DNA from: a virus
Lineage: Duplodnaviria > Caudoviricetes
IMG/VR virus record: IMGVR_UViG_3300017766_000636
Coordinates: 1 to 25,399 of that record
Strand: one strand, 5' to 3'
DNA: 25,399 bases
The notes under the pieces are model-generated. The model searched no databases. It saw only the letters and a program-made list of their open reading frames with translations, and was not told the origin of the DNA. Position numbers and translations under genes: made by a program. Shown piece by piece: positions 3,295-25,128 of this stretch (position 1 is its first letter; each line of letters begins with the position of its first letter).

Positions 3295-3306
3295 TTCGGA
3301 GCACTA

Positions 3307-5091
3307 ATGGACAAGCAGCAGATTTTAGAGATGGCAAAAGCAGACCCCCGGTTCTCTCAAGCGGTGTTGACCCTTGAGAACCAAATTGGCGACATGCCGA
3401 TCACGGGTGAAAATCTGGACGAACTGGTTGAGATGTTAGAGTTCGCTCTGAACAACCCCGATCAGTACCCGCAAATTGTTGCCGCTGCTGTGAGTGACGA
3501 CATGGTGGATCCAGGCGATTTACCTGAGCAATTCGACCAAGTGGCTATAATCTCTCTGCTTGTCCTGCTCTACGGTATGCAGGAGAGAAACAAGCGGAAG
3601 GGTTTTGCGCGGGGCGGCTTAGCGTCTCTGGGTCGCCACGGCGACACGATGATGGCGCACATTAACCCGCGTGAAGCTGAGATGCTCAAGCGCATGGGCG
3701 GTGGCGGTACTATCAATCCTAACACAGGCTACCCCGAATACTTTTCACTTAAGAAGTTCTTGAAAGCCGCGCTACCTATCGCGTTGACTTTTCTTGCCCC
3801 TGGCTTGGGCACCGCGATTGGTTCGTTTTTAGGTGCTAGCGGTGTTGGAGCTTCTGTACTGGGCGGCGCTATCCTCGGTGGTGTGACCAGCGCAGCAACC
3901 GGAGGAGACTGGAAAAGGGGTGCTCTCATGGGCGGGTTGGGCGGTGGCGCTGGCAATTATGTCGGCGGCGCTGCAAACCGAGCCATGAACCTGGGGCTAG
4001 GGCAGACAGGACAAGCCGTGCTTGGCGGCGCTTTGGTGGGCGGCATAGGCGGCGAGATTACCGGCGAAGGGTTCGGTAAGGGTGCGCTGCAGGGCGGTAT
4101 AGGCGGCGGGATAGGGCAGGTGGCCGGTGGCGTGTCTGGACCAACCGCGCTTAGGCAGGGTGTCTCTACCGCAGGGCAGACGTTCGGTAACGCGCTGACA
4201 GCGGGTTACGATCCTGAGACTGCAGCTTCGCTCGGCGCTCTGTCCGGAATAGCGACTGGTCTTACGTATAAACCGTCCGACGCTGTGGTGCAAAATCTTC
4301 AGTCTGGTACAGACTACGAGGCCACCACTTATCCTGGCGTAGACACCGGAGCCGGAATTACTAGGAGACCAATTGGTCAACCTTCTACAGACTTTAGGTT
4401 CTACGAGAACCCCGGCGTTGCTCCTATGACTGGGTCGGTCTCTTATCCGGCAGTAAATACCGGAGCGGGCATTACTAGGGAACCAATGGCAGAACCGTCT
4501 TTCTGGGAAAAGATCACCGGCGGTGGTGATACCGGGGCGGGTGAAGGCGGCGGCACAGGTCTCACGGCAGGTAAAGTGCTGGGCGGGTTAAGTGTTTTAT
4601 CCGCACTGCAAGGTGCTCCTGAACCCGTACAGCAAGCGGTGCAGCAGATGTCTCCAGCGCAGCAAGAGTACTTTAATCGCCCCTCCGTGACGTGGGACTG
4701 GAATAAATTACAAACAGATGCCAACGCAAGTAACCTGAGCCTTAACCAATACATGGCCAGAAACTGGCCGAGAATTACCGGTGGAGAATACAATGCGCAG
4801 CCTGCACAACCTGCGCTAGCCCGTGGCGGTCCTCTGTCTGCGATTGCCAGGTTTGCCCAAGGCGCGGGTTCGGGTCGAGCCGATACCATTGACGCAAAGC
4901 TCTCCGACGGAGAATACGTGATAGACGCAGAAACCGTAGCCATGCTGGGTGACGGCTCAAGTAAGGAAGGCGCACGGCGACTAGAAGAGATGCGCCGGGG
5001 CATCCGTGCTCAAAAAGGCAAGGCATTGGCGCGGGGCAAAATAAGCCCTAACGCTAAGTCTCCTCTCAGCTACATAAAAGGTATCGCATAA
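3307..5091 (+). CDS. Internal virion / DNA-ejection protein, Gly-rich (594 aa)
   Basis: GGAG RBS. Motifs GRHGDTMMAHINPREAEMLKRMGGGGTINPNTGYPEYF and GSGRADTIDAKLSDGEYVIDAETV resemble phage internal/tape-measure-like proteins. Long Gly-rich hydrophobic middle. Sits after the nozzle gene. Confidence 0.6.
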   Translation: MDKQQILEMAKADPRFSQAVLTLENQIGDMPITGENLDELVEMLEFALNNPDQYPQIVAAAVSDDMVDPGDLPEQFDQVAIISLLVLLYGMQERNKRKGFARGGLASLGRHGDTMMAHINPREAEMLKRMGGGGTINPNTGYPEYFSLKKFLKAALPIALTFLAPGLGTAIGSFLGASGVGASVLGGAILGGVTSAATGGDWKRGALMGGLGGGAGNYVGGAANRAMNLGLGQTGQAVLGGALVGGIGGEITGEGFGKGALQGGIGGGIGQVAGGVSGPTALRQGVSTAGQTFGNALTAGYDPETAASLGALSGIATGLTYKPSDAVVQNLQSGTDYEATTYPGVDTGAGITRRPIGQPSTDFRFYENPGVAPMTGSVSYPAVNTGAGITREPMAEPSFWEKITGGGDTGAGEGGGTGLTAGKVLGGLSVLSALQGAPEPVQQAVQQMSPAQQEYFNRPSVTWDWNKLQTDANASNLSLNQYMARNWPRITGGEYNAQPAQPALARGGPLSAIARFAQGAGSGRADTIDAKLSDGEYVIDAETVAMLGDGSSKEGARRLEEMRRGIRAQKGKALARGKISPNAKSPLSYIKGIA

Positions 5092-6749
5092 TGGGCAGCT
5101 TATTCCAAGGGTCTCCGCAAACCGCTACAGACTACGCAACGTCCACGTCAGAGACGCCCAAGTGGATGCAGGATGCGATTTACAACCAAATCCAAGTAGC
5201 GCAGAACTTAGCTAACCGACCGTACGAGTCGTACGACATGCCTACTGTGGCTGAGCTATCACCGCTACAGCAGCAGGCGTACAAACAGGTACAGACTAAC
5301 CAGGGAGTATGGCAACCGGGCATGAACGTTGCTCAAGCCGGTATGCAGGGTATGACTACTGCGGGCACAGCAGACGCTTTAAAAACCGCGCAAAACCAAT
5401 ACCTGCGCCAAGGTCTTGTAGACCAAAACCTGAACGCTGGCCAAAACTATTTTAATCGAGCAGGGCAGCTAGACATTGTTGGAGCCGCACAAGGCGCTCT
5501 GACGCAAGCCGGTCAGCAGAACATCATGGGCGCGGCACAACCCTATTTGAGTCAGGCTGGTACTGCTGCGGGCAACATTTACGGAGCAGCGCAACCGTAC
5601 ATGAGTCAAGCCGGTACTGCTGCGGGCAACATTTACGGAGCAGCGCAACCGTACATGAGCCAAGCTGGAGCAACCACCGCACAGGCGTTGTCTGACCGCG
5701 CTCTAAACGCAGCTAACCCGTACCTTCAAGCCGCGTCTCGGTCATCTGCCCAAGGTATTGAACAATATATGAGTCCGTACCAAACAGGTGCGATGGACTT
5801 ACTGGCTAAACAAGGAGCGCGTAATCTTTCTGAAAATCTGCTGCCCGCCGTGTCTGACTCGTTCATCCGAGCCGGTCAGTTTGGTGGTAGCCGCATGGGT
5901 GAGTTTGGTAGCCGCGCTTTGCGCGACACTCAGGCATCAATTCTCAGTCAGCAGGCGCAGCTGGCTAACCAAGGGTACGGGCAAGCTCTCGCCGCTTCTC
6001 AGGCAGATCTAGCACGTCAGGCGCAGTTGGCTGGTACGGTGGGTAGCATTTCAGGAGCAGATCTATCTCGCGTCCTGCAGGGCGGCGCGCAGTACGGTAA
6101 CCTCGGTCAGACGCAGGGTCAACTAACAGCTCAGCAGGCGTCTGCACTAGGAAACCTGGGTCAGACTGCTGGTCAGTTGACCGCTCAGCAGGCTTCTGCA
6201 TTGGGTAACCTTGGTCAGACTGCTGGTCAGCTAACGGGGCAGCAGCAATCTAATTTGATCAACTTGGGTCAGACTCAGGGTCAGCTCACCGGTCAGCAAA
6301 TGTCGCAGCTGGGTAACCTAGGGCAGATGCAAACCGCTGCGGGGCAGGCACAACAACAGTTCGGTCTGAGCGCGGCGCAGGCGGCGCAGCAGGCTCAGGC
6401 GCAAGACTACCAGCGCCAGATGGGTGCGCTTTCAAATGTTGCAGGGCTGGCTCAAGAGCAGCAGCGGATGGGTTACGTGGACAGTGCGGCGCTAGAAGCC
6501 GCTGGCGGCGCTCAACAGCAGCAGGCGCAACAACAACTTAATGCAGCGCAACAGCAGTTCCAGAACGAGCAGCTGTTCCCGCAGCAGCAGATGGACTGGC
6601 TCAGCACTCAAGTGCGCGGCATGGCACCGATAACACCGCAAAGGCAAACCCAAACTGGCGGGTCAAGCGGTAACACATATTCGGCTTCGCCGCTGTCACA
6701 ACTGGCGTCAGGGCTGTACACATACAAAGGCATGAACGAATTCGGTTAA
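5091..6749 (+). CDS. Internal virion / DNA-ejection protein, Gln/Ala/Gly-rich with 18-aa repeats (552 aa)
   Basis: TAATG coupling to the upstream gene; Q/A/G-rich helical composition; two 18-aa repeat arrays. Confidence 0.6.
   Translation: MGSLFQGSPQTATDYATSTSETPKWMQDAIYNQIQVAQNLANRPYESYDMPTVAELSPLQQQAYKQVQTNQGVWQPGMNVAQAGMQGMTTAGTADALKTAQNQYLRQGLVDQNLNAGQNYFNRAGQLDIVGAAQGALTQAGQQNIMGAAQPYLSQAGTAAGNIYGAAQPYMSQAGTAAGNIYGAAQPYMSQAGATTAQALSDRALNAANPYLQAASRSSAQGIEQYMSPYQTGAMDLLAKQGARNLSENLLPAVSDSFIRAGQFGGSRMGEFGSRALRDTQASILSQQAQLANQGYGQALAASQADLARQAQLAGTVGSISGADLSRVLQGGAQYGNLGQTQGQLTAQQASALGNLGQTAGQLTAQQASALGNLGQTAGQLTGQQQSNLINLGQTQGQLTGQQMSQLGNLGQMQTAAGQAQQQFGLSAAQAAQQAQAQDYQRQMGALSNVAGLAQEQQRMGYVDSAALEAAGGAQQQQAQQQLNAAQQQFQNEQLFPQQQMDWLSTQVRGMAPITPQRQTQTGGSSGNTYSASPLSQLASGLYTYKGMNEFG
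5559..5666 (+). repeat. Tandem 54-bp in-frame duplication (GTAAGNIYGAAQPYMSQA x2)
   Basis: ggtactgctgcgggcaacatttacggagcagcgcaaccgtacatgag is identical at 5559 and 5613; degenerate copies precede it. Confidence 0.95.
6096..6332 (+). repeat. Degenerate 54-bp tandem array (GNLGQTxGQLTxQQxSxL, about 4.4 units)
   Basis: Units start at 6096, 6150, 6204, 6258 and 6312; protein-level identity is high while codons have diverged synonymously. Confidence 0.9.
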
Positions 6750-6759
6750 GGAGCAAGAA

Positions 6760-8835
6760 ATGGGATACGAACTGAAAAAACTCATGGGTCAATTCGGCGT
6801 TAGCACGCCGGGTATGGTCAACTATTCCGGAGCAGCTGCCCCCGGAAAAGCCCCTGATGCGGGGGCTACTCAGGCTGACAAAGACGCTTTTGATGAGTCA
6901 GTACGTAAGTACAACCTCGACAATAAATCGTATGACATATACAAAAAAGAGTACGAAAACCGTCTGCAGAATTCACCCGGCATGTATTCTCAACCACAAT
7001 TCAACACGGCATCAAGCGCGCCTTCCACCGCGTACTCGTACTCGCCAATGGCGCAAAGAGTTAATGCGCCTGGGGGTATTGGGATTGATCAAGCCAACCG
7101 AGACATTCAAAACTGGTTTGCCAGCAACCCCGGTGCTACACCGTCGGAAAGGGCGGCAATACAACAAAAATACGGCGTGAGTGATCGTGATACTCGTAAC
7201 GCGATGGGCACAGCGTTTAATCCGGATAGAGGTATGACAGCTTCCGTCATGCCACTGGAACGCACACCGTTGAAGGCTCCTACGTACGGCGCGGTAGGAC
7301 TCAATGCGCAACTTATGTCTGACGCAGACCGGCAGGCGTACTACAACAGCCAGCGCAAGATCGGCTACACGATGGGCGACCTGAAAGCTAACGCTGAAAA
7401 AACATTCGGCGTTGGTTCAGTGACTGACCCCAACTGGCACGGATGGGAAAGCCAGTACAACCCAGCTTACGTACCGACTGCCAGCCCCGTCGTAGCGACC
7501 GGATCTGCCCCGCCAGTCACAACGACTACGGAAACTGCCGCTACGAACACCGCCGATGCAAGCGACGACGGCCAGTATTTCGATCCGAACAACCCATACT
7601 GGGCGTACTCGCATGGTGGTGCGGTGAAGACGCATTACCAAACCGCTGGGCGCGTTTCGCTGCCAAGCGGCTATGTTGAGGAAGAAGATATCATACCTCC
7701 TACGACTGTCATGCCTCCTGCGACTGTCATGCCTCCTGCGGTAGCTGCGGCTCCCAATGATCGTATGGCTGATCTACAAACCATGTTAGCGGCTTATGGT
7801 CCTTCAGAAAGCATTTACGCAGAAGAGCTTAAGACCTCTCGTGATAGAGCGCAGCAAGAGAGCGACGCTTTTGCCGAAATGCTCAGTGGCGCTATGTCGT
7901 CTCCGGAAAGTGACAGTAACTCAAAAGCGGAGCTGTACTTCCGACTGGCGTCGGCTTTCGGTGCACCTACTAAAACGGGTCAGTTCAGTGAGAACATTGG
8001 GCTGGTCGGCAAAGAGATGTCTGAGTACGCCAAAGACAGACGAGCCTCTAGCCAAGACCGGTTGAACCTAGCTCTCAAAGCGCAAGAGTTGAAGATGGAC
8101 GCGGCTAAAGAAGATTTGAGTACGCTACGCTCGTTAGCTGCAGAGGAGATGAGAGACAAGCGCGCCATAGGTACAGAGATGATCAAAGAGTACGTAGCGT
8201 CAGGTAAGCCCCAGTCTAACGCCGGTCAACAAGCGCGGGATGAAGGGCTGCAGATGGGGACTCCCGAATTCGCTGCTCGAGTTCAAGAATTAGCTCAAAT
8301 TGACATTGACAGACAGATACAAATGACCCAGCTGCAGCTTGATAACCTAAGCCTGCGAAGCGAGAGACAACAGCAGCTGAGTCCTACCGAAATTGCTCTC
8401 AAAACAAAAACAGAAGACAATGTCGGCAGTTTAACCACAGCTTTGAATAATCTCTCCCAAGCGTATGCGCTTAATCCCAACAGTTTAGATGGAGGATGGA
8501 TAGGAAAAACGCGGCAATTTTTAGGAAATATATCTAGCAGTGACGACCCTATCTATGTTAACACTAGGCAGATAGACAACCTGCTCGGCTCTCAAGCGCT
8601 AGAACTATTGAGAGCTACTTTTGGGGGCGCTCCGACGGAAGGAGAGCGGGCTATCTTGCTAGAACTGCAAGGTATCGGGTCTGCAACAAAAGAAGACCGC
8701 GCAAAAATCATGATGCGAGCTTACGAAGAAATTCAGAAGAGTTTAGCTAGAGAGCAAGGTCGTCTTGAGCAGATCAACTCCGGGGCTTACCGTATGACAA
8801 CTCCCCCCGCAACAATAGACGGAGGCATAGAATAA
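6760..8835 (+). CDS. Internal virion / DNA-ejection protein (691 aa)
   Basis: AAGGAG RBS. Low-complexity P/T/A linker followed by a helical C-terminal half (LRATFGGAPTEGERAIL). Position in the ejection-protein block. Confidence 0.55.
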   Translation: MGYELKKLMGQFGVSTPGMVNYSGAAAPGKAPDAGATQADKDAFDESVRKYNLDNKSYDIYKKEYENRLQNSPGMYSQPQFNTASSAPSTAYSYSPMAQRVNAPGGIGIDQANRDIQNWFASNPGATPSERAAIQQKYGVSDRDTRNAMGTAFNPDRGMTASVMPLERTPLKAPTYGAVGLNAQLMSDADRQAYYNSQRKIGYTMGDLKANAEKTFGVGSVTDPNWHGWESQYNPAYVPTASPVVATGSAPPVTTTTETAATNTADASDDGQYFDPNNPYWAYSHGGAVKTHYQTAGRVSLPSGYVEEEDIIPPTTVMPPATVMPPAVAAAPNDRMADLQTMLAAYGPSESIYAEELKTSRDRAQQESDAFAEMLSGAMSSPESDSNSKAELYFRLASAFGAPTKTGQFSENIGLVGKEMSEYAKDRRASSQDRLNLALKAQELKMDAAKEDLSTLRSLAAEEMRDKRAIGTEMIKEYVASGKPQSNAGQQARDEGLQMGTPEFAARVQELAQIDIDRQIQMTQLQLDNLSLRSERQQQLSPTEIALKTKTEDNVGSLTTALNNLSQAYALNPNSLDGGWIGKTRQFLGNISSSDDPIYVNTRQIDNLLGSQALELLRATFGGAPTEGERAILLELQGIGSATKEDRAKIMMRAYEEIQKSLAREQGRLEQINSGAYRMTTPPATIDGGIE
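7696..7740 (+). repeat. 18-bp tandem repeat, 2.5 copies (PPTTVM PPATVM PPA)
   Basis: cctcctacgactgtcatg cctcctgcgactgtcatg cctcctgcg. Confidence 0.9.
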
Positions 8836-10868
8836 TGGCTAATGACGCGGGCAATTTTACAAGGGCACTGCTGGGTCAAGGTCTTGCTATGGGTTGGGGA
8901 GACGAAGCTGAGGCGTGGCTACGTGCTAAAGTTGGGGAAGACACGTATGAGAAAGAGCTTGAGAATATTAAACAAGACTACGCTAGATATTCTGCTGAGA
9001 ATCCGTTCATAGCCCCAGCATCTGAGTTCGCAGGCGGGGTGCTGCCAATGGTGGCCTCTTATATGGCGACTCCTTTCACGGGAGGCGCGGCGGCTCCAGC
9101 TGCGGTTGCTACAACCGCTAGGACAGCGGGCGCGCTAAAAACACTCGCCCAGAACCCTTACCTGCGCAGCATGGTTGTCGGGGGCGCAACTGGTACTGTT
9201 GCGGGAGCAGGTTCAAGTGATCCTGGCGAACGCTTAGAAGGCGCGGTTCCCGGCGCGGTCGTAGGGACAGTGCTCGGCGGGGCAACGCCAGTCGCTATGC
9301 GCGGCGTGGGCGCGGGGTACAACTGGCTGAAAGACCGTCTAAGCGGCTCGGTTCCCTACCTTGATAGGCGTGCAGCTAGGAAAGTTAACCAGGCGTTAAC
9401 GCGCTCGGAACTAACCCCTGCTGAAGCAGAAGCGCGTGTCGCCGCAGACAGAGGGATGGGTGTACCGTCTACCCTTGCCAACGTGTCTAAACCGACCGTA
9501 AGCCTAGGTGAAGTCGTTGCGGCAAAAGGAGAGGGCGCGGCAGACGTAATGGAAACAGGGCTAGAGAGAAACAGGGTCGGCCAGCGTGAGAGAGTGATGG
9601 GGCAAACCAAGCGGGGCACGGGAACGCAAGGGGACTTCTACGCTCAAGAGCAAGAAATGGTTCAGAACCTGCGTAGCAATGCAGATACTTTATACGATGA
9701 TGCGTACAGCTTCGGCACCGTTAACGACCCAACAATTAACCGCGTGCTGCAAAACCCGCAGTTTAAGACGTTTTTTGACGAAGCCAAAAAGATTGCTGAC
9801 AACGAAAAAGTTGCGGCTGAGTTACGGGGCGAAGACCCGAGCAAGTACGTCTTAGATGATATATTTATAGCTGATTCTGCGGGCAATATCACGCTAGCAA
9901 AATTGCCCGATGTACGCACTCTTGATTATATTAAGCGCGGCATGGACGCGGTAATAGACCGGGGCTACAGAGGCGAAGGCATGAGCAGCGCTGAAGCCAA
10001 CAGTCTGAAACAGTTGAAAAGATCGATGGTTGACGCATTAGACAGAGCAACCGAAGTGGACGGCGTGTCTGCTTACAGGACTGCGCGGCAGCAGTACGCT
10101 GGGGACGCAGAAGTGTTAGATGCACTGCGGATAGGCAGAGACGACTTTAAAGCACTAGATTCTGAGCAGATTACAAGTATGATGAAAGGGTTTAGCGCTG
10201 CAGAGCAAGATGCATTTAGAACCGGCGCTGTCCGTAATATATATTCAACGGTCATGGATCCAACCGCTAACATCAACGCCGCTCAACGCTTAATTGGTTC
10301 TCCGGAGATGCAAAGAAAGTTGATGCCGCTGTTCGGTAGTCCGGCTAAGTTTGATTTGTTCAAGGCCGCTATGGAGCGCGAAAGCCAGCTGTTCCAGCAG
10401 TCCAATAGGATTCTAGCCGGTTCCCCCACTGCGCGTAGAACCGCCGGAGTAGCCGCGTTTGACGAAGGCGAGGGGCTGGTCGGCGCGGCACTGAGCGACG
10501 CTATGACTACGGGCTGGGTTGGCTCTCTGACCAACATGGCGGCTAACCTGGTGTCTAAAGCCAGTATCAGCGACCAGGTTGCCGAGCGAGTCGCCAAGCT
10601 GCTGGTCTCAAGCGACCCGCACGAGGTTGCTGCAGCGGTGAGGTTCCTCGAGAAAGAAAGCGCTGGAGCCGCCACCGCTGCTGCTACGTTTAATCGGGCA
10701 GAAGCAGGTGCGGTTATGGGGCTGAACACCGCGTACCCTCCGTCTCCGATATACACCGGCGGCGAGCCGGCAGACATTGAAGCGGACTCTAGACGAGTGC
10801 CGGGAGACGTAATGGTAGGCCCAGACATTGAAGCTGACATTGCAAGGCAACGCGAAACGCTAAGATGA
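8835..10868 (+). CDS. Large internal virion / DNA-transfer protein (677 aa)
   Basis: GGAGG RBS and TAATG coupling. N-terminal GQGLAMGWGDEAEA..ENPFIAPASEFAGG followed by Ala/Gly-rich hydrophobic segments, typical of podovirus ejection proteins. Last gene of the + arm. Confidence 0.6.
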   Translation: MANDAGNFTRALLGQGLAMGWGDEAEAWLRAKVGEDTYEKELENIKQDYARYSAENPFIAPASEFAGGVLPMVASYMATPFTGGAAAPAAVATTARTAGALKTLAQNPYLRSMVVGGATGTVAGAGSSDPGERLEGAVPGAVVGTVLGGATPVAMRGVGAGYNWLKDRLSGSVPYLDRRAARKVNQALTRSELTPAEAEARVAADRGMGVPSTLANVSKPTVSLGEVVAAKGEGAADVMETGLERNRVGQRERVMGQTKRGTGTQGDFYAQEQEMVQNLRSNADTLYDDAYSFGTVNDPTINRVLQNPQFKTFFDEAKKIADNEKVAAELRGEDPSKYVLDDIFIADSAGNITLAKLPDVRTLDYIKRGMDAVIDRGYRGEGMSSAEANSLKQLKRSMVDALDRATEVDGVSAYRTARQQYAGDAEVLDALRIGRDDFKALDSEQITSMMKGFSAAEQDAFRTGAVRNIYSTVMDPTANINAAQRLIGSPEMQRKLMPLFGSPAKFDLFKAAMERESQLFQQSNRILAGSPTARRTAGVAAFDEGEGLVGAALSDAMTTGWVGSLTNMAANLVSKASISDQVAERVAKLLVSSDPHEVAAAVRFLEKESAGAATAAATFNRAEAGAVMGLNTAYPPSPIYTGGEPADIEADSRRVPGDVMVGPDIEADIARQRETLR

Positions 10869-14022: not shown

Positions 14023-14412
14023 TTAATCGTCTGCGTTTTCAAAATCATCTTCATCATCTTCATCATCTTCATCATCGTAGTTGGGACTCGCCCTACTAAA
14101 CTCCCACAGCTGGGGCTGATAAGAGAACGAGTTCCTGTCCCAGCTTAATACGTTGATACTGTGGTTATCCTCGCTGACAACAGACATACACACTGCGCAC
14201 AGCGTGGGATCCCCAATCATCAGCAAGTGGTCACCCGCTTGCCACTCAGCCATGACGCGCCGCGCCTTGGCCAACATGCTCGCCGTGTCGTACGGCTTGC
14301 GCGGATTACCGAAAACCGCCCGTAACGCGCCGTACTTCTTTGCGTCAGATAAGTCTTTGTTGTTGTCTACCTGTACTACGTAAACCGTGCGTTGGTTACC
14401 GTGTTCAATCAT
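14023..14412 (-). CDS. Conserved hypothetical phage protein with acidic tail (129 aa)
   Basis: TVYVVQ..AKKYG..DHLLMIGDP..LSWDR..Y pattern, an alpha/beta protein seen in phage replication modules; overlaps the polymerase stop by 8 bp. Confidence 0.75.
   Translation of the reverse strand: MIEHGNQRTVYVVQVDNNKDLSDAKKYGALRAVFGNPRKPYDTASMLAKARRVMAEWQAGDHLLMIGDPTLCAVCMSVVSEDNHSINVLSWDRNSFSYQPQLWEFSRASPNYDDEDDEDDEDDFENADD
14044..14076. repeat. 9-bp tandem repeat (ATCATCTTC, about 3.7 copies) encoding DDEDDEDDEDD
   Basis: atcatcttc atcatcttc atcatcttc atcatc. Confidence 0.9.
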
Positions 14413-16243
14413 TACGTTTCCTCAGTTTCTTAGGTGGTGGGGCTACAAGAGCCAGCTGCTCTGGGGTGAGGTACTGCGAGCAACCAACTGCCATCGCGAT
14501 CTTTATCGCTTCTCTAATGTACCAATCATAATCAAGATCTTCCGGGTGAGCCGTTTTATTAGCCAGCGTCATGCAGGCTTTCGCCCCCTCTGTTTTAGGG
14601 ACTTTATTACCGTTGGTAGCGTATCTAATAAACTCACCACCGAGTTCTGTTGACTGATACCAACGCACAACTTTCCCCAAATAGACCCCGAGCTGTTGAC
14701 CTCCGCCAGTTACGTTGCGAGCACTGATGAAGTCAACGAACGGGGCGTTCTTAATGGTGGTTTCAAGCGGTACACCGCTAGCCAGCCACGCTCCAACCGC
14801 ATCCGCAGCAACCTGCGCCGTCGGATTCTTCTTAAGAGAAAGCGGCGCATAAATGCCTTTCACTTTAAGAGTCCGATCCCACTTTACCGCAATGTAGTTG
14901 TTTACGTCTTTCATAGCGAGGGCGCGGTAATACGTATACTCAAACGCAAACCGAGACACTTCGCTGAACCTGCTGACTACTTTTTCAACCAACTCCTTCT
15001 GCTCTTTAGTGAAGCGGATAGCGATGCCGTCGGTGTTCGCCGATAGCGTCACAGCCCCAGCACGCTCAAGCCACTCTACCAGCATGAGTAGTGTAAACTG
15101 GCCGGTAAGCGTAACCGCCAACATCAAGTCCGGCGAATACAACACTGAGTAGCGGCTAGCCAACTTACCGAACGTGCCGTTGAGCGATATCTTAAGCGTA
15201 GCGTCGGTGGTCTTGTCACCACTACGCTTTGCTTCTAGGCGGCGTTCGTAAATCTTACGGTACTCTTCAACGAACCGACTGCCCAGGGCTGCGGGTACGA
15301 ACCCGCACTCCAATATGATACTTGGATAAAACGAGGCCGCGTCAACTTCACAGACCAAATCACCCCCAGCAACGTGGCAGACTTTTCTATCATGCACGCT
15401 ATGTATACCTCCCACGCCCAACTGGTACTCACCCGTTCCGAACGTAATCGTCCGCTGCCCGAGAAAGTCTGGTAACTGAACGTGGCCTGTAGCCTGGTTC
15501 ATGTTGAACACGTGCTTAGAGACGCGATCAAGCAGCCCCTGCAGCTTTGCGTCCCTGAACTTCAAAAATGCCGGAGGTGTGTACGTAACCGTCTTCGGCA
15601 CCTCATTTTCTCTACGCTTGAGACGCATGCTGGTGATGTACGCTTGTTCAGCCATCTGCGAGTCAGACTTGCTGCGCATGTCTGCTCCGTACCGGCGGCT
15701 CATCTCAACGCGCAGTAATAACTCACCCTCTAACTGATTCAGCAGCTCGACGGTGGTGTCTACGTCGTTGTGGCAGTACTCTAACAACATCGGTTCTTGC
15801 TCAGGGTTAATTAGTTCATCGTGCGCTATTGGCATGTCTTGCAACATAGGCATATGCATACGTGCTCCGTACGCCTTAAGGCCGACAAAAGAGGGCGCAA
15901 CTTCTATCAAGTCAATGTCATCCAGTATGACGTCACGCAAACTGTGCTTACGCATTGACACCCAAGGTGCGAGCCGGTTGGTGATGATGTCATCAGCAAT
16001 GCGCTTGATCTCTATCTCAGTTCTACCCAAACAGAACGCCGCCACAATCGCATTGTCAAACGACTTAGAATTAAAGCCGATCAACGTCGTGTCCGGTTTC
16101 TGCACGAATCGGGTAAGACGAGCAGGGGCGTCGTCAGCGTGACGCCACAGATCGAACCAGTCCCCGGTCTCTATGTTCTTTGCGCAGAACAGTGTACGGT
16201 TCGGCAGAGTCTCGGTATCAAACACCCACGTGCCCATGCTCAT
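14405..16243 (-). CDS. Compact family B DNA polymerase with 3'-5' exonuclease (612 aa)
   Basis: ExoI FDTET, ExoII GFNSKSFD, ExoIII YCHNDV; polymerase motif A VDAASFYPSII, motif B KISLNGTFGK, motif C SANTDGI. Confidence 0.93.
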   Translation of the reverse strand: MSMGTWVFDTETLPNRTLFCAKNIETGDWFDLWRHADDAPARLTRFVQKPDTTLIGFNSKSFDNAIVAAFCLGRTEIEIKRIADDIITNRLAPWVSMRKHSLRDVILDDIDLIEVAPSFVGLKAYGARMHMPMLQDMPIAHDELINPEQEPMLLEYCHNDVDTTVELLNQLEGELLLRVEMSRRYGADMRSKSDSQMAEQAYITSMRLKRRENEVPKTVTYTPPAFLKFRDAKLQGLLDRVSKHVFNMNQATGHVQLPDFLGQRTITFGTGEYQLGVGGIHSVHDRKVCHVAGGDLVCEVDAASFYPSIILECGFVPAALGSRFVEEYRKIYERRLEAKRSGDKTTDATLKISLNGTFGKLASRYSVLYSPDLMLAVTLTGQFTLLMLVEWLERAGAVTLSANTDGIAIRFTKEQKELVEKVVSRFSEVSRFAFEYTYYRALAMKDVNNYIAVKWDRTLKVKGIYAPLSLKKNPTAQVAADAVGAWLASGVPLETTIKNAPFVDFISARNVTGGGQQLGVYLGKVVRWYQSTELGGEFIRYATNGNKVPKTEGAKACMTLANKTAHPEDLDYDWYIREAIKIAMAVGCSQYLTPEQLALVAPPPKKLRKRND

Positions 16244-16244
16244 G

Positions 16245-16508
16245 TCAGCCTTGGTTCACATATCTGTGAGTAGGTTCGCACGCCTCATAAGCTTCAGCTT
16301 CACGCTGCTCTAGCTCTATCAGCTTCTCAAGATAGTGAACCGCTTTCTGCAGGTCTTCAATAGGTTTACCTTTCAAATAACACCGCTCAATGTACTTTGT
16401 TGCAGCAGCTTGAAAATAGTTCATGTTCAGACGAGCAACCCTATCCCAGTGTTCTTCGCCGCCGAGCTTGTAATGGTCGCCGCCGACTTGCTTATCGTTT
16501 GCGCTCAC
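16245..16508 (-). CDS. DUF3310 protein (T7 gp1.7-like putative nucleotide kinase)
   Basis: QVGGDHYK..KYIERC..KGKPIEDLQKAVHYLE signature. Confidence 0.8.
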   Translation of the reverse strand: MSANDKQVGGDHYKLGGEEHWDRVARLNMNYFQAAATKYIERCYLKGKPIEDLQKAVHYLEKLIELEQREAEAYEACEPTHRYVNQG

Positions 16509-16993
16509 TCTGCATACCCCTTTATCAAGTTGAAGATTTCACGTTCTTGGCAGACCAAGATCATCTCGTCGGCATAACTCAAATAGCGGTCAAAAACGCG
16601 GCGCATGCCTTTGTTCCCCAGGGAGATCTCCCGCGCACAAAACAACGCCCCGTGGGCAACGTCGGACAGTTTTAAAGTGCGCTTATCTTCAGGGGTCAGG
16701 TCTGGCATTATTATGCCGACAGCGGCCATGAGGCGTATTTCAAGTTCGTCCACCTTGCCGCCGATACCAAACTCGCGTTTAGCCGGGGAGGGGATGTCGC
16801 CAGTTTGGTGTTCAGCCAAGTCGTGAAACAACGCAGCCAGCAGCAGCTGACGACTAGCCTGGGGGTTAAACAGGAGGCACAGCATAGCTACGCCGTGAGA
16901 GTGGTGGCCCACAGTTTCAGACACGAGGGTAGTCACGGTATGGTACCGTTTTACATCGCTTCCGGCCAGAATAAAATCAAGAGTCTGTTTCAT
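16505..16993 (-). CDS. HD-domain 5'-deoxynucleotidase (YfbR-like)
   Basis: VKRYH..ETVGHHS..LFHDLAE..GDIPSPAK..KLSD. Start moved to the ATG at 16993, with GGAG 7 nt upstream. Confidence 0.87.
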   Translation of the reverse strand: MKQTLDFILAGSDVKRYHTVTTLVSETVGHHSHGVAMLCLLFNPQASRQLLLAALFHDLAEHQTGDIPSPAKREFGIGGKVDELEIRLMAAVGIIMPDLTPEDKRTLKLSDVAHGALFCAREISLGNKGMRRVFDRYLSYADEMILVCQEREIFNLIKGYAE

Positions 16994-17024
16994 CAAAGTT
17001 CTCCAGTTAGCAGTTATAGTAAAA

Positions 17025-17070
17025 ATTATAGCTCAATTTTTTCACAGAAGGCAACTTGTTTTTTCCGGTT
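17025..17070 (-). promoter_or_regulatory. Sigma70-like promoter P1, embedded in the 3' end of the hydroxymethylase gene
   Basis: Minus strand TTGCCT (17054-17049), 18-nt spacer, TATAAT (17030-17025), with an A-tract upstream; same hexamers as P2 and P3. Confidence 0.75.
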
Positions 17071-18069
17071 GTCACTTTCTTTTACATCACGGGCTTGGTC
17101 ACGCCGTTCTATCCAGTCAAACGCCGCACGACGCCAGTCTTCTGCTAGAATTTTAATAGCGTAGTCGCGCCCGTCGCCGGTATGCTCTTTACGCACTTTA
17201 CTAATCATGGCCATCGGGTGCGCAACTTCCGCAAAGAAAGGGTTGGTGTAGTCGATGAATTCGTTGTAAGGGTCTGCGCAGAACATCTCACACTCGGTCA
17301 AAAACACCTTGTACTTTCTGTTAAGCATTATCGGCCTAGGACGCAACATATCCTGAGCGTAGTAATCGTAAGTAGCGGCATCGGGGGGTATCTCTAAATA
17401 CTGCTTCGCGTTGTAAAGTTCGGTGTACAAGTGAAAGTTGTTGCTCACTTGGCGGTACACCCCGACATTAAAATCTACGGCGGCAGCTACGAACTCTTGC
17501 AAGATACTGAAGTGCACAGCGTTAGCGCCGTAAGCGCCCCACCAAATGTCGTTGCTGCGGTTGATGACAGTCATGTTCAGTACGTCGTTACGCGTGTCAA
17601 AAATTATCTGCATGTTGCACGCTTTGTCTTTCGTCTTCCTGACTAAGTCGTAATCGCACCAAATTTGTACCACCGCTTGGCGGGTGTTAGGCTCGCGTCG
17701 CAAGAGCTTGATGACGTTGTCAAGCTGGTCGTGCCCGAAGTAAGTGCGCCATCGATGGCCATACGCAGCGTTAAAGGTCTTGCCGTCATCGCTAAAATCG
17801 GCCATGCGCTTATTAAACTGCTGCAAGAACGCAACGTCGTTACGTCCGGCTAGCATCCATATAGACTCCATAAGGTGGAAAATAGGGTTAGTGTCTCGCC
17901 CCCCGTGGAACAACACCCGCTCGGTAGGACACTGGTACACGGTTGTTACCATCTCTGGATACACCAGCGCAGGGCCATTCCGGGTCTCTTGCGGTTGAAT
18001 GTCGAGCACTTTAAACTTCCAGAATATCTCACTAAACGCCTCGTTAACATTACGTACTACGAGTTCCAT
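17026..18069 (-). CDS. dUMP hydroxymethylase (thymidylate-synthase fold, 347 aa)
   Basis: TRNG, AAYGHRWR, catalytic Cys in KDKACN, NRSNDIWWGAYGANAVHFS (Asn at the uracil-specificity position) and NNFHLY. Context next to a 5-hmdU DNA kinase favours hydroxymethylase over ThyA. Start corrected to ATG 18069 (GGAG RBS, 1 nt after the upstream stop). Confidence 0.88.
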   Translation of the reverse strand: MELVVRNVNEAFSEIFWKFKVLDIQPQETRNGPALVYPEMVTTVYQCPTERVLFHGGRDTNPIFHLMESIWMLAGRNDVAFLQQFNKRMADFSDDGKTFNAAYGHRWRTYFGHDQLDNVIKLLRREPNTRQAVVQIWCDYDLVRKTKDKACNMQIIFDTRNDVLNMTVINRSNDIWWGAYGANAVHFSILQEFVAAAVDFNVGVYRQVSNNFHLYTELYNAKQYLEIPPDAATYDYYAQDMLRPRPIMLNRKYKVFLTECEMFCADPYNEFIDYTNPFFAEVAHPMAMISKVRKEHTGDGRDYAIKILAEDWRRAAFDWIERRDQARDVKESDNRKKQVAFCEKIEL

Positions 18070-18070
18070 A

Positions 18071-18985
18071 TTAAAACTCCGTCTCTGGTTGGTATGTAGA
18101 TTTTGGCTTACCTTCTCCCCGCACGGCGCGGCAGTACTTGCCGTACTCACACATACAGTTCTGCACATCGTGTAGTGTCATGTCTACTATCTCTAAACGC
18201 TCTACTATCTCATTAAGAATGCCGCTCAATTTTGAGTTAAACTCTTTTTGCTTCCACGTGGCAAACTGCGCTTTACCGTACAAGTAGTTCAGACCACGAG
18301 AGCTACCGGGGCCAATCGGGGCGTAAGTGAAAAGATCGTCTACGTCTGCGCCGGTGTAAGTGAGGTCGGCGGCTACCTGCCCAGCCATGAACGTGCTAAT
18401 CCCAAAACATCGGCTCAGCTCAGCTACAAACCGCTCAATACTCATCCTGTTCTCACTCGTCCAGAGCGCGCTACCAATCTGTTCAGCGTTCTCAATCGCA
18501 CCGCCGATGATGTACTTAGCCGCCGCCTTAGCCTTATTACCCCCCGGCTCAGCTTTTGTGGGGTACACCATGTACGCGCCAGTCCAAACCTTTTTACCGT
18601 CGGCTTTGATGCGTTCAAGCGTGTGCTCAAACGCGGCGGCATCAAAGTCTGTGGGAGAGCAGGGTATAACGCCGTTATCAATCAACGCATGTAGTGTAGG
18701 TGGCCAGTTGATTAAGCGGGCGATGAGCAGAGTGAACCAAAGATCTTTTCTCTCAAGGTTCGGCGTTATTAAGTTATCAATCACCCACTGCGACACTCGG
18801 TCATCGCGGCGACGGACGTTGGTGAACTTGTACTTAGAGAGTACATGGTCTGTAGTCCACGGAGCCGGATGGCCGTTCTCACGAGCGAGGCGAATAGCTT
18901 CACGCTCCCAAATGAAATAAAGCAAACCCGGCAGGGAGCAGACTGTCTCTCGCGTAGGTCTTGGGTGTGGGCATTCATCAATCAT
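18071..18985 (-). CDS. 5-hydroxymethyluracil DNA kinase (aGPT-Pplase1 family)
   Basis: FIWEREAIR..PWTTDHVLSKYKFTNVRRRDDRVS, GAYMV, FMAGQVAADL, GPGSSRGL and DVQNCMCEYGKY motifs. Confidence 0.9.
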   Translation of the reverse strand: MIDECPHPRPTRETVCSLPGLLYFIWEREAIRLARENGHPAPWTTDHVLSKYKFTNVRRRDDRVSQWVIDNLITPNLERKDLWFTLLIARLINWPPTLHALIDNGVIPCSPTDFDAAAFEHTLERIKADGKKVWTGAYMVYPTKAEPGGNKAKAAAKYIIGGAIENAEQIGSALWTSENRMSIERFVAELSRCFGISTFMAGQVAADLTYTGADVDDLFTYAPIGPGSSRGLNYLYGKAQFATWKQKEFNSKLSGILNEIVERLEIVDMTLHDVQNCMCEYGKYCRAVRGEGKPKSTYQPETEF

Positions 18986-19559
18986 TTTCGTATTCCTTCA
19001 AATAATTAACGACTATCGTGACGGGGTCTTGCCAGTCTATCCAGCGGACATCGTAACCCCCGGCTTCAGTTAATAGCTCCGCACTTCTAAAACATTGTGT
19101 ATACGCGGTGCGCATTGTCTTGTCGGGGTCAAACACCTTGTCGTTACCCGCTGCTAAGCGACGAGACAACACTCGCTCCAAGCAAATATCCCACGGCGTG
19201 TCCAAGAACCCGAAGATAGCCCCGTGTTCTTTAAGAATCGGGGCTACGTGTCCACCGGCGCTCGACTTGCTCATCAGCAGCCCTTCTACGAGCACATGAC
19301 CATGGCCCCATGCCTTTACTACTCGCTCTGCTATCTCTTCCTGCGTGTTTATACCGTCCGTACCGCCACAGGCGTTCTCATAACTACCGACAACGTAGAC
19401 AGGCATCCTAATACCCCACGAGGAGGCATCTACGCTGTAGCCTAAGGGTTTACCAGGCTTTCCGCCCAGCGGAGTGCACGGCAGCTTGTCCAGGAAGCGA
19501 CGCACTATCGTAGTCTTACCTGAGCCGTTGCATCCGCGAATGTTGACAATTTGACTCAT
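18978..19559 (-). CDS. P-loop nucleotide kinase associated with thymidine hypermodification
   Basis: NIRGCNGSGKTT Walker A, GSYENACGGTD, VLVEGL and LDTPWDICLERVLSRR lid motif; sits between the transferase and DNA kinase genes. Confidence 0.8.
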   Translation of the reverse strand: MSQIVNIRGCNGSGKTTIVRRFLDKLPCTPLGGKPGKPLGYSVDASSWGIRMPVYVVGSYENACGGTDGINTQEEIAERVVKAWGHGHVLVEGLLMSKSSAGGHVAPILKEHGAIFGFLDTPWDICLERVLSRRLAAGNDKVFDPDKTMRTAYTQCFRSAELLTEAGGYDVRWIDWQDPVTIVVNYLKEYEND

Positions 19560-20536
19560 AAAAAGTGCTCCGCTCGGTAAGGTGCGCCGGTCTCTGGGAA
19601 CACGGCGGCTTTCTGGTTAATGGTCAGCTGTTCCCCGCCGCACTCAACACGTAACCAGTCGGGCAGCGCCGTTCTCATGTCTTTGAATACAGCCGTATAC
19701 GCGCTCTGCCCACGCGCATCGGCCCACTCAATACGCTCTTGCGCCATGTCGGCGTAGACGCCGGGGTAGCGACGACCGAAGAAGTGATTTTTGAACGTGC
19801 ACAAGTTAGACTCAAAAGTAAACCTGCTAGCGCCCGGTACTCCGCAGGTGTCTAGATATTCGCCAGTTTTCTGAGTCAACCACCCGCACATCTTACCGAA
19901 CTCTGGGTAATTACCGTCTTGCCCGTTGAGTAGGCGCTTGTCCCATACAAGCTCGTCTTTACCCAGCAAGAACAGCATGCCGTTGCGATGGGACTTGCTA
20001 CCGGACTTGTCATTGAAAAGTAAATCGTCGCAGTCAGCACCATACCCCATAATCTTAACATACTCTAAATATGAGAACGAAGACAACCGACCAAAACTGT
20101 AGTAGCGATTACGTACTAACTCCCACAGCTCAGCATATGTGCCGGTCAACATCTTGACCTGTGTACCGTGCTCAGCCACCAACAACGCGTAATTTTTTAT
20201 AGCTTGTATCGTGTCTCGCTTCTGATACCGACGGTCGGTGTCAAACTGCAGCGTGTCCCACTCGGCATTGAACCAGTCGGTGAACCGGGTTAACGCCGCT
20301 GTCGCCGGGGGAACAACCGGAAGCTGCTCAAATAAACGCAGCGAGGTGATCGGGTTCTGCGTCATACCATTTAAGTAAGCGAACCAGAGCTTCTGCTCGG
20401 CGTCCCAGTTATACTGGCGAGCTAACTCCGGCATGTACAGGTATACCAGTCCAGGCATAACGCAATGCTGCAGGTTCATCCGGTACAGCGCGTCAAAATA
20501 CTTGCGTCGGTTTTCAGGCAATCTGTAATCCGTCAT
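19556..20536 (-). CDS. Amino acid:DNA transferase (aGPT-Pplase2 family)
   Basis: EQKLWFAYLNG, FDTDRRY, FGRLSSFSYLE, GSKSHRNG, ESNLCTFK and RYPGVYADM motifs; operon context. Confidence 0.85.
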   Translation of the reverse strand: MTDYRLPENRRKYFDALYRMNLQHCVMPGLVYLYMPELARQYNWDAEQKLWFAYLNGMTQNPITSLRLFEQLPVVPPATAALTRFTDWFNAEWDTLQFDTDRRYQKRDTIQAIKNYALLVAEHGTQVKMLTGTYAELWELVRNRYYSFGRLSSFSYLEYVKIMGYGADCDDLLFNDKSGSKSHRNGMLFLLGKDELVWDKRLLNGQDGNYPEFGKMCGWLTQKTGEYLDTCGVPGASRFTFESNLCTFKNHFFGRRYPGVYADMAQERIEWADARGQSAYTAVFKDMRTALPDWLRVECGGEQLTINQKAAVFPETGAPYRAEHFL

Positions 20537-21489
20537 GCGGACTTCCTCGTATAAAAAGGCTCGACCACTTTAGTGTCAGGCGCACTACCTACAATCCAAA
20601 AGGCGGTGCTGTCATCATACGCTAACTGCCCGTGTTGTGTCAACCAGCGCCACATCTTGGCTTCATAAGTGGGATGAAAACTGATCCCGTCAAAACCCTC
20701 CCCTTTAAAGTGGTCGCTGTACTTGCTGTACCCGTTGTCGTGCAGGCTGTAGTGCTTGAGCTTAAACGGTAAGTTATCAACGTCAACACCAATGTACGCT
20801 AACCGCTCACGCATCCAGCTGCGCTTGTCTGGCCCGATGCCGATTGTGAACAGCTCTTCAATATTGTGTGGGTCGCGACTCAGGCCGAGCATTATGCTCG
20901 TCAGCGAGTTACAAGACCCAGCGGGAACTATTAAGCGCCTGACCTCTGGCGGTACATTAGTGGTCTGATACGCGCCGACTTCGTGGAACTTGCGCACGTC
21001 TTCCGCAGCATAACGGTCGTGAGGTAGAGTGATGCCGTACTCGACCACGAGTGATGTAGGTTGCGTTAGGTCAATTACTTTACGCTGTAAAATAGGGTTG
21101 TACGGGCCAGAGGCGTATTCAAACTCGGCGTCGAACCCGTGGGCCATACGCGGGTTCTCGTGACGCAACACAGTCTCCGGCTTGCTGTAGACTACCTGCC
21201 GAGCGCGTAACCCGTAATGCGCACCGACAATCGCGCTCATGCTCAGCTGCGGAGACTGAACACTAGCGCCGGTCACAATGTGGGTCTTACCCTCACGGAA
21301 CCGATTGACGTACCAGATAAGCTGGCGCATCTTTGAGCCGTTAGGCCCACTGTAACCGAGAGGGGCAAAGTAATCATCCCGCTTGAACCACATACCCTTA
21401 TGGTTCTCCCACGGGGTATGCGTGCCTAAGTGCTGCTCCCACTTAACAACGTCGCGGTTGAGCGACAGCTCCGGGAATACGGTTTTCAT
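20533..21489 (-). CDS. PLP-dependent enzyme (fold type II), likely DNA-bound amino-acid decarboxylase
   Basis: WFKRDD..GPNGSKMRQ (PLP lysine), VPAGSCNS phosphate loop and FHPTYEAK. Cysteine desulfhydrase/ACC deaminase-like pattern adjacent to the transferase. Confidence 0.85.
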   Translation of the reverse strand: MKTVFPELSLNRDVVKWEQHLGTHTPWENHKGMWFKRDDYFAPLGYSGPNGSKMRQLIWYVNRFREGKTHIVTGASVQSPQLSMSAIVGAHYGLRARQVVYSKPETVLRHENPRMAHGFDAEFEYASGPYNPILQRKVIDLTQPTSLVVEYGITLPHDRYAAEDVRKFHEVGAYQTTNVPPEVRRLIVPAGSCNSLTSIMLGLSRDPHNIEELFTIGIGPDKRSWMRERLAYIGVDVDNLPFKLKHYSLHDNGYSKYSDHFKGEGFDGISFHPTYEAKMWRWLTQHGQLAYDDSTAFWIVGSAPDTKVVEPFYTRKSA

Positions 21490-21908
21490 GCGGTTGCCCC
21501 TGAGACAGCGACCAGCATGAAGCTGCGCTCGTTGATTTGAATAATCTTTTGCTCACCGATCTTTGCAGCGGCGTAAAGCTGCGCGGTCAATCGGTCTTGC
21601 TGCGCGCTGGTCAGCCAGTCGGGATGGTCGCGCCACATCTGGTACGCGTTCTTCCAGGTCTCGCCGCTGCTCAAACAAATGAGGGTGCGGTCGAGCTTGA
21701 GAGACGCCTTCATGCTCGGTCGAGTGGTAGAGTTATCAACCTTCTGTTTAATCGCTTTCCCCTCTTTTAGTAAAGTGTCAAACACCTCGGTACACCTCCG
21801 TTCGGCGGTCTTGCGGTCTCTAAACCGCTTGACCGGCACAGTGCTGTGGCGGTTGTAGAATGATAACAGTTGCGGGGTCGTCATGTTAGAGAATTTTAAA
21901 AAGCTCAC
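21486..21908 (-). CDS. Hypothetical basic protein (140 aa)
   Basis: GTG start with GGAG RBS; GTGA and ATGA overlaps on both sides; YN..PVKRFRDRKTAERR motif. Confidence 0.75.
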   Translation of the reverse strand: MSFLKFSNMTTPQLLSFYNRHSTVPVKRFRDRKTAERRCTEVFDTLLKEGKAIKQKVDNSTTRPSMKASLKLDRTLICLSSGETWKNAYQMWRDHPDWLTSAQQDRLTAQLYAAAKIGEQKIIQINERSFMLVAVSGATA

Positions 21909-22120
21909 TTAGTGGTCTCCAGACTTCGGTTGTCAGTGTTCCCGTAGCGTTCTTCGCAGACGCTTTGGAGATTATTGTAATCCGTGTGGACGCGGTCTCT
22001 TACTCGTGCGCAGTAGTCCTGCTCTTGGCGAAGGTCTTCTTCGTAATCAGTATTACCGGCTAGACCGAAGCCTATGACCGTTAAAGTGAAGATTAGAGTT
22101 ATTGTACCTGCTCGCTTCAT
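21905..22120 (-). CDS. Small exported/membrane-anchored protein (71 aa)
   Basis: MKR plus a hydrophobic stretch (signal peptide/anchor), two Cys downstream; AGGA RBS. Confidence 0.7.
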   Translation of the reverse strand: MKRAGTITLIFTLTVIGFGLAGNTDYEEDLRQEQDYCARVRDRVHTDYNNLQSVCEERYGNTDNRSLETTK

Positions 22121-22872: not shown

Positions 22873-22931
22873 TGGAATGAATTATAGCCTGATAGTTTTC
22901 AGGAAGGCAAGCGTTTTTCACAATTATTTTT
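22873..22931 (-). promoter_or_regulatory. Sigma70-like early promoter P2 with UP-like element
   Basis: Minus strand AAAAATAATTGTGAAAAACGC-TTGCCT-N18-TATAAT-TCATTCCA; near-identical to P3 outside the spacer. Confidence 0.88.
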
Positions 22932-25070: not shown

Positions 25071-25128
25071 TGGAATGAATTATAGGGCCAATGAATTCGA
25101 AAGGCAAGCGTTTTTCAAAATTATTTTT
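25071..25128 (-). promoter_or_regulatory. Sigma70-like early promoter P3 with UP-like element
   Basis: Minus strand AAAAATAATTTTGAAAAACGC-TTGCCT-N17-TATAAT-TCATTCCA. Confidence 0.88.

Follow-up and report, generated by a model that had tools for sequence, protein, structure and literature searches.

A predicted thymidine hypermodification cluster in an uncultured phage joins a ViI-type enzyme pair to an M6-ordered backbone

The 25,399-nucleotide (nt) sequence of IMG/VR record IMGVR_UViG_3300017766_000636, referred to below in its full length as the window, is derived from a virus of the class Caudoviricetes. Positions 16245..21489 of its minus strand hold seven genes, in order of reading those for an enzyme that depends on pyridoxal phosphate (PLP), an amino acid:DNA transferase, a P-loop kinase, a clade-1 aGPT-Pplase (Pplase1), a dUMP hydroxymethylase, an HD-domain phosphohydrolase and a DUF3310 protein. 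They very probably form a thymidine hypermodification pathway, through which some of the thymine in the phage DNA is likely exchanged for a larger base built from an amino acid, the expected benefit being resistance to host nucleases and protection from restriction. Judged from sequence, the cluster is a hybrid of a backbone ordered as in phage M6 and a front pair, PLP enzyme and transferase, of the type found in Salmonella phage ViI. The best single guess for the donor, and a somewhat probable one, is serine, with 5-(2-aminoethoxy)methyl-deoxyuridine (5-NeOmdU) as the product. The gene content itself appears to be no surprise, the pathway strategy being known; the branch of the transferase appears to be new ground, where the donor may prove to be serine throughout a very broad clade or else lead to a new base. 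With the cluster, a known chemistry directed against nucleases reaches a large family of phages not yet cultured, as a small contiguous gene set that would be easily reconstituted.

Gene layout, conservation and relation to known clusters

All seven open reading frames (ORFs) lie on the minus strand, and the coordinates, tight packing and order given in the initial annotation, which was made from the letters of the sequence, were confirmed, including the position directly upstream of the DNA polymerase gene. Overlaps of 4 nt join the next ORF upstream to the PLP gene, the PLP gene to the transferase gene, the latter to the kinase gene, and the HD gene to the DUF3310 gene; the kinase and Pplase1 genes overlap by 8 nt, and gaps of 1 nt precede the hydroxymethylase and polymerase genes. 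Each enzyme of the cluster has a characterised homolog. Five of the seven genes exceeded the Pfam cut-off (ADDT, HMUDK_hel, Thymidylat_synt, YfbR-like and DUF3310); two products were relabeled, that of 18978..19559 as 5-hydroxymethyldeoxyuridine (5-hmdU) DNA kinase and that of 18071..18985 as clade-1 aGPT-Pplase. The profile searches that the initial annotation had proposed recovered ADDT (PF18724, E value (E) 1e-15) and HMUDK_hel (PF18723, E 2e-43), and gave no Pfam match for the PLP gene. The interpretation as a thymidine hypermodification cluster, which that annotation had also put forward, is supported by the homologs, the gene order and the catalytic residues.

A search of IMG/VR with the transferase as query found 85 loci, of which 80 (56-77% identity) were kept; the transferase also matched 610 database proteins. 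The seven genes occur in identical order at 54 of the 80 loci, and the six genes other than the PLP gene at 70; short contigs account for many of the loci without the full order. Purifying selection was detected in every gene with unsaturated synonymous divergence (dS), the ratio of nonsynonymous to synonymous divergence (dN/dS), being 0.03-0.09 in comparisons with two relatives (loci L077 and L012) that allowed dS to be measured. Because the order recurs in relatives and dN/dS is this low, the cluster is not a product of chance. Its compactness had been presented as a surprise, but M6-like clusters are equally tight, and in Glutamicibacter phage Montesquieu the transferase, PLP and kinase genes stand side by side (L001:6986-9496).

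The succession of kinase, Pplase1, hydroxymethylase, HD, DUF3310 and polymerase genes is the same as in M6 and YuA, which produce 5-(2-aminoethyl)-deoxyuridine (5-NedU), and in PaMx11, which produces 5-acetylaminomethyl-deoxyuridine (5-AcNmdU), with protein identities of 29-45%, and the same gp49/gp45-like gene lies upstream. The glycine transferase, gp52-type PLP enzyme and radical S-adenosylmethionine (rSAM) enzyme, or flavin adenine dinucleotide (FAD) enzyme plus acetyltransferase, of those phages are replaced here by the ViI-type pair. Further differences are that the PLP gene precedes the transferase gene, that the polymerase is unrelated and that the relatives lack a dCMP deaminase match. 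The M6 rSAM isomerase gene sits between the transferase and kinase genes, which overlap here with nothing between them, and the FAD lyase and acetyltransferase genes that stand beside the glycine transferase gene of PaMx11 were found neither in this cluster nor in its relatives. In ViI (Ackermannviridae; kinases gp67 and gp243, transferase gp247, PLP enzyme gp226) the PLP enzyme is orthologous and has the same lysine, and relatives of the window phage resemble ViI in having no rSAM, FAD or acetyltransferase gene. In ViI the genes are dispersed along a genome of 157 kb, with about 9 kb between gp226 and gp247, whereas they abut here; the kinase of the window is nearer to M6 gp54, and the transferase differs in two pocket residues. 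Many permutations of these genes have been reported from metagenomes (Lee et al., PMC8989533, accessible in part, here and below).

The IMG/VR record of this phage consists of these 25,399 bases only. Five close relatives are 52.9-58.0 kb long and 97-100% complete; the genome of this phage is therefore probably 53-58 kb, and the window represents under half of it. A close cultured phage was not found, the best match of the polymerase being 39% identical. One contig from a sequencing run, the only one to contain the stretch in full among 24 listed entries, 21 of which scored below 0.2, was identical to window positions 15981-22000; this run may be the source of the record and is hence not independent. 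One RNA run gave only pieces less than 95% alike and no support for expression.

Transferase, PLP enzyme and the predicted base

The PLP enzyme (20533..21489, minus strand), predicted to be an amino acid:DNA decarboxylase, shares 34.5% of its residues with ViI gp226 (E 4e-66) and matches M6 gp52 with an E of only 0.015. Its Lys53 aligns with Lys92 of gp226, so that the Schiff-base lysine is kept, and an NGSK motif is present in all 56 family sequences. In a tree of 28 rows gp226 branches as the sister of the window group (SH-like approximate likelihood-ratio test (SH-aLRT) 96), 81 of 133 near-invariant family columns are shared with gp226, and the active-site motifs resemble those of gp226 closely. 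On these sequence data the enzyme is of the gp226 type and not of the M6 gp52 type. Both gp226 and gp52 are decarboxylases; gp52 was inactive on N-alpha-GlyT, the PLP chemistry requiring a primary amine (PMC8989533).

The transferase (19556..20536, minus strand) is a clade-2 aGPT-Pplase of HhH-like fold with catalytic Glu242 and Cys246, both invariant in 58 of 58 alignment rows, and shares with gp247 the Glu/Cys pair and the DxDxRY and GRL motifs. Sequence searches against solved structures returned nothing for it; only the fold comparison of a predicted model (pLDDT 95) reached PaMx11 gp46 (8Z2M; Z 17.6, root-mean-square deviation 3.5, 244 aligned residues), the next match having a Z of 9.0. 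In an LG+G4 tree of 24 rows, of the kind proposed in the initial annotation, the window group and the ViI clade come out as sisters (SH-aLRT 99). Grouping with the glycine transferases, named there, together with an rSAM gene elsewhere, as the outcome that would overturn the predicted product, was rejected (approximately unbiased test, p-AU 1e-56). A mixture-model tree of 50 rows likewise placed the ViI, actinophage and window groups far from the glycine and diamine enzymes. Within the family, a position on the side of ViI is thus supported by the sequence comparisons.

Several observations weigh against reading the transferase as a second gp247. It is just 27% identical to gp247 and nearer to uncharacterised actinophage enzymes (36% to Montesquieu gp42, 33% to gp3 of mycobacteriophage B4), the match to M6 gp51 (E 0.15) not being significant. 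Near-invariant columns in a MAFFT alignment agree with ViI in 48 of 110 cases and with Montesquieu in 68, a register slip near the cysteine costing ViI a few matches. About 3.4 changes per site separate the window transferase from gp247, a longer path than the 2.2 between the transferases of PhiW-14 and SH-Ab 15599, which carry different donors in vivo. A clade of window and actinophage transferases was not rejected (p-AU 0.38), and the mixture-model tree gave no resolution among the ViI, actinophage and window groups, so that the sister relationship to ViI stands in the LG+G4 tree only. Profile-profile alignment of either the window clade or the ViI clade to the glycine clade failed (probability <1%), and no assayed member of the branch, actinophages included, was found in the literature on these systems. 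Two of the three positions reported as donor determinants also differ from ViI. Li et al. (PMC13458397, accessible in part) named three cluster-specific positions of the donor pocket, switched donors by two changes, and noted many uncharacterised Pplase2 clusters. By motif alignment the corresponding residues of window and ViI are Thr247/Trp288, Asn250/Lys291 and the common Tyr257/Tyr300; the fold comparison yields no residue pairs, and the mapping to YuA rests on the same motif alignment. The glycine-binding lysine that follows the catalytic cysteine in YuA (K248) was not found, Thr247 standing in its place. The pocket motif reads ESNLCTFKNH in 75 of 77 window-clade sequences and ETSGACWLKKF in 22 of 23 ViI sequences, and C-T-Y-K is common to all 19 actinophage sequences. 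Finally, about half of the phage genome lies outside the window, and a dCMP deaminase was not matched in any of the five near-complete relatives (G001-G005), unlike in M6 and SH-Ab 15599; the supply of dUMP would therefore rest on the host.

Tailoring genes were searched for in the same relatives. Families of rSAM, FAD-oxidase and GNAT proteins had no match in the five relatives of 97-100% completeness, positive controls being detected in 14 of 14 genomes. Since Pfam might miss an M6-type rSAM enzyme, tblastn searches with M6 gp53, Pam3 gp46 and PaMx11 gp47 and gp48 were added; none had a match at E<0.01 in three whole relatives. When 93 of the 112 representative ORFs from these three relatives were compared with Pfam, the 19 omitted ones being homologs of window genes, no tailoring family appeared, and no rSAM, FAD or acetyltransferase gene was found among the 30 window ORFs scanned (125 listed). 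The earlier statement that the cluster has no rSAM or flavin step agrees with these ORFs and with the relatives, within a window of under half of the probable genome.

In the proposed route the hydroxymethylase would make 5-hmdUMP while the HD enzyme drains thymine nucleotides, as homology suggests, and the phage polymerase would incorporate the nucleotide derived from 5-hmdUMP. By analogy with M6 gp54, the P-loop kinase would then add one phosphate to part of the 5-hmdU bases. Cys246 of the transferase would attack C6, the phosphate would leave and the donor would add to the exocyclic methylene, as in the chemistry of Lee et al. and in agreement with the residues and fold of the window enzyme. 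The donor, likely serine, would be attached via its side-chain oxygen: decarboxylation by a PLP enzyme needs a free alpha-amine, and no isomerase gene was found in the window ORFs scanned or in the relatives. The PLP enzyme, through Lys53 and with the chemistry of gp226, would decarboxylate the adduct to 5-NeOmdU, the base of ViI. Before the DNA is packaged, leftover 5-hmdU would likely be converted back into thymine, with Pplase1 as a possible agent. The initial annotation had likewise favoured the ViI route; the gp226-type PLP enzyme, the position of the transferase and 5-NeOmdU as best guess agree with it, while the assignment of serine appears weaker than it implied, given 27% identity and altered pocket residues. 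The 5-hmdU background that it expected is contradicted by the virion DNA of SP10, PhiW-14, M6 and ViI, which is free of 5-hmdU and has thymine at the other positions (PMC8989533).

The main competitor to serine, held as a lesser but serious possibility, is another amino acid with a side-chain linkage (threonine, cysteine, homoserine, or a diamino acid such as ornithine or lysine), whose decarboxylation would give an undescribed base or offer a new way to a known polyamine base. The difference from ViI of a nearly fixed pocket motif, its C-T-Y-K counterpart in actinophages, the donor switch by two pocket changes and the replacement of Trp by Thr beside the catalytic cysteine, which could enlarge the pocket, all speak for it, and it is equally conceivable, at the same tentative level, that the whole branch attaches a non-serine amino acid from which the ViI-type PLP enzyme makes an undescribed base. 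Serine is favoured by the sister position of ViI, seen for the PLP enzyme and, under LG+G4, for the transferase, and by PLP active-site motifs near those of gp226; moreover, the long branch is that of ViI, so that the differences may reflect rate only. A PLP enzyme that catalyses beta-elimination or deamination, or is dispensable, would leave a base with its carboxylate or with other trimming. This is improbable, even though the enzyme has the D-cysteine desulfhydrase fold (a weak match, E 0.006), 9 of the 80 loci have no PLP gene near the transferase gene despite an upstream sequence of at least 2.5 kb, and neither mycobacteriophage Lolalove nor a 173-kb record carrying such a transferase has a PLP gene. 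Both gp226, the nearest characterised enzyme, and the more distant gp52 decarboxylate (PMC8989533), and the window gene is intact, overlaps the transferase gene and has a dN/dS of 0.03-0.05.

Two further explanations carry very little weight. An M6-type route, in which amine-linked glycine is rearranged to 5-NedU by an rSAM isomerase encoded in the unseen half of the genome, would suit a backbone ordered as in M6 and PaMx11, but it is opposed by the rejected glycine clade, the absent glycine-binding lysines, a PLP enzyme not of the gp52 type and the lack of an rSAM match in all five near-complete relatives, and is the least probable of all. Hardly more credible is unmodified DNA, with the thymidylate-synthase-fold gene making dTMP or the cluster being a relic. 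Pfam calls this gene thymidylate synthase only, and relatives lack a dCMP deaminase match; its product, however, is far closer to M6 gp58 than to ThyA, the frames are intact, the order is conserved and selection is purifying.

Among cultured phages, the transferases of highest identity are those of Montesquieu (MONT_42-40) and of mycobacteriophage B4 (Lolalove; genes 2-4), with the same Cys-Thr-aromatic-Lys motif, and Montesquieu is a cultured phage in which such a base could be identified. In the accessible part of the report on Montesquieu (PMC9331655), MONT_41 is annotated as aminocyclopropane carboxylate (ACC) deaminase and MONT_40 as ABC transporter, both discussed as auxiliary metabolic genes; by sequence they look like the hypermodification PLP enzyme and kinase. 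Lolalove has an annotated hydroxylase gene, interpreted here as putative Tet/JBP-type, and no PLP gene. An identified base for either system was not found in the literature, including the accessible part of PMC9331655. The diamine:DNA transferases of PhiW-14 (gp109) and SH-Ab 15599 belong to the same family and share the catalytic Glu/Cys, but form a distant clade with Gly after the Cys and no PLP partner of gp226 type.

Kinase, Pplase1 and nucleotide-supply enzymes

The P-loop kinase (18978..19559, minus strand), predicted as a 5-hmdU DNA kinase (5-HMUDK) that makes 5-phosphomethyl-deoxyuridine (5-PmdU) on DNA, is 29% identical to M6 gp54 (E 9e-12), has an intact Walker A motif and is closer to gp54 than to ViI gp243. 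Its Pfam match is sub-threshold (HMUDK_HMUD1, PF18748, E 0.009), and a sequence search against solved structures gave nothing. It matched 92 phage records; M6, YuA, PhiW-14 gene 37 and SH-Ab 15599 are among the matches listed. P-loop proteins, M6 gp54 included, are 5-hmdU DNA kinases, the kinase domain of SP10 works alone, and these kinases add a single phosphate (PMC8989533). The pyrophosphorylation assumed initially is at odds with that report, in which only the monophosphate was observed. Across the window and loci L003-L082 the kinases separate by identity into two classes (about 70-83% and 39-48%), independent of the identity of their neighbours; at L015, for example, the kinase is 48% identical while the other genes are 72-87% identical. 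The two classes suggest, from sequence comparison, exchange of the kinase gene.

Pplase1 (18071..18985, minus strand) is 32% identical to M6 gp55. It was initially taken for the kinase, an assignment that was rejected since the P-loop proteins have this activity and M6 gp55 is dispensable for group transfer (PMC8989533); the Pfam name HMUDK_hel probably misled the earlier reader. A Cys-Glu motif (Cys279) is present in all 74 family sequences and in M6 gp55, PaMx11 gp50 and Montesquieu gp52. Because this motif is kept and, according to the literature, borohydride treatment turns the transferase intermediate into thymidine, Pplase1 may be considered a candidate for returning leftover 5-hmdU to thymine. 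In ViI, where about 40% is substituted, the return to thymidine is described as unexplained in the accessible part of PMC5889632, and the cluster supplies a Pplase1 protein with which to address how phages restore thymine. A literature search for a Pplase1 function found no relevant paper; pairs of thymidylate synthase and Pplase1 occur in pelagiphages, as stated in the accessible part of PMC9599517.

The dUMP hydroxymethylase (17026..18069, minus strand) has a thymidylate synthase fold (Thymidylat_synt, E 1e-20) with Cys151, Arg171 and Asn183. It is 43% identical to M6 gp58 (E 3e-89) and matches Escherichia coli ThyA only at E 3e-10; 428 phage records match it at E<1e-20, M6-like and ViI-like phages, SP10 and SPO1 gene 29 being among the matches listed. 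By these comparisons it is assigned to the M6/ViI/SPO1 type rather than to ThyA. The HD-domain deoxynucleotide phosphohydrolase (16505..16996, minus strand; YfbR-like, E 5e-9), predicted to drain dTMP and dTTP, is 37% identical to M6 gp59, has DatZ as its best solved-structure match (E 7e-6) and probably starts at the ATG at 16993. The DUF3310 protein (16245..16508, minus strand; PF11753, E 6e-6) is a homolog of M6 gp61 (45% over 67 residues).

Variation among relatives and neighbouring features

The PLP gene is present at 63 of the 80 loci; of the 17 loci without it, 9 have at least 2.5 kb upstream. Three PLP-less records were searched in whole, of which two have no PLP gene and one has it elsewhere. 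A sub-clade lacks the gene at the locus (L044, L045, L047, L048, L059 and L040; G006 and G007), including two records without PLP gene altogether, which, judged from gene content, would keep a carboxylated adduct; the gene is placed elsewhere or inverted in G008 (L049), L007 and L008.

At 12 of the 80 loci a gene of about 250 residues with a class I S-adenosylmethionine (SAM)-methyltransferase fold and no Pfam match lies directly upstream of the transferase gene (L057:2315-3061, L071:7237-8004, L078:2436-3209 and nine more within L003-L082). It also occurs at other loci (L115, L117, L129-L131, L133, L140, L190-L204) and so is spread over several unrelated phage groups, in some with a PLP gene and in some without. 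Among 27 further loci with this gene, about 11 of which repeat contigs of the first set, 24 have a transferase gene no more than 4 kb away, a PLP gene is carried by 13 and a Tet/JBP gene by 11, and one (L193) is an M6-type glycine-rSAM-PLP cluster. The gene was found neither in this cluster and window nor in eight relatives searched, two positive controls being detected. It may be a candidate for a tailoring step; N-methylation is a guess, made because a primary amine is common to these products. If the transferase branch does attach a non-serine amino acid, relatives with the methyltransferase would methylate the amine to further new bases, possibly choline-like ones. O-methyltransferases are mentioned among dioxygenase neighbours in the accessible part of PMC13229309. 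Literature on this gene or on N-methylation of such bases was not found, although the gene-map figures of PMC8989533 and PMC13458397, both accessible in part, may already show the gene or the transferase clade. Loci L078, L079 and L194-L204 are larger phage contigs with Tet/JBP, methyltransferase, transferase and kinase genes in a row, and a 173-kb record among them has no ViI-type PLP match. At L075 (= L189):969-5202, beside terminase genes, Tet/JBP, glycine-clade-like transferase, PLP, methyltransferase and window-type transferase genes follow each other, so that this cluster holds two transferases.

The ORF at 21486..21908 (minus strand; phrog_4730), which overlaps the start of the PLP gene, has homologs at 55 of the 80 loci. 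Its family hidden Markov model matched M6 gp49 (E 3e-7) and PaMx11 gp45 (E 2e-6) among five candidates, and both of these genes adjoin their transferase genes on the upstream side; the M6-like backbone therefore appears to extend upstream, and by these matches the ORF is an eighth conserved gene, absent from the initial list. ESM Atlas returned only scores below 0.9 for it. The DNA polymerase gene (14405..16243, minus strand) matches phrog_1252 (E 1e-155) and has family-B-like motifs with weak PolB Pfam matches; no match to M6 gp62 was found at E<1.

The seven genes may not form a single transcription unit. A predicted sigma-70-like promoter, TTGCCT-N18-TATAAT, lies at 17025..17054 (minus strand), where the final codons of the hydroxymethylase gene are, and faces the HD, DUF3310 and polymerase genes. 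The pattern TTGCCT-N17/18-TATAAT has three minus-strand copies in the window (25079-25107, 22881-22910 and 17025-17054), against 0.01 expected, with A-rich DNA upstream. Among 30 printed relatives the 17025-17054 site reads TATAAT in 20 and TATACT in 7, and in relatives a conserved ATAACTGCTAACTGGAG stretch lies between this site and the HD start. Given this conservation, the HD, DUF3310 and polymerase genes probably have their own promoter. A generic scan remained near chance level (13 promoters against 11.2 expected; 22 terminators against 14.9).

On the plus strand, window positions 27-10868 hold six large genes, mostly without Pfam match, one of which matches a virion structural PHROG. In relatives, SU10-adaptor-like, capsid and terminase genes lie nearby, and the region is consistent with a podovirus-like virion module.

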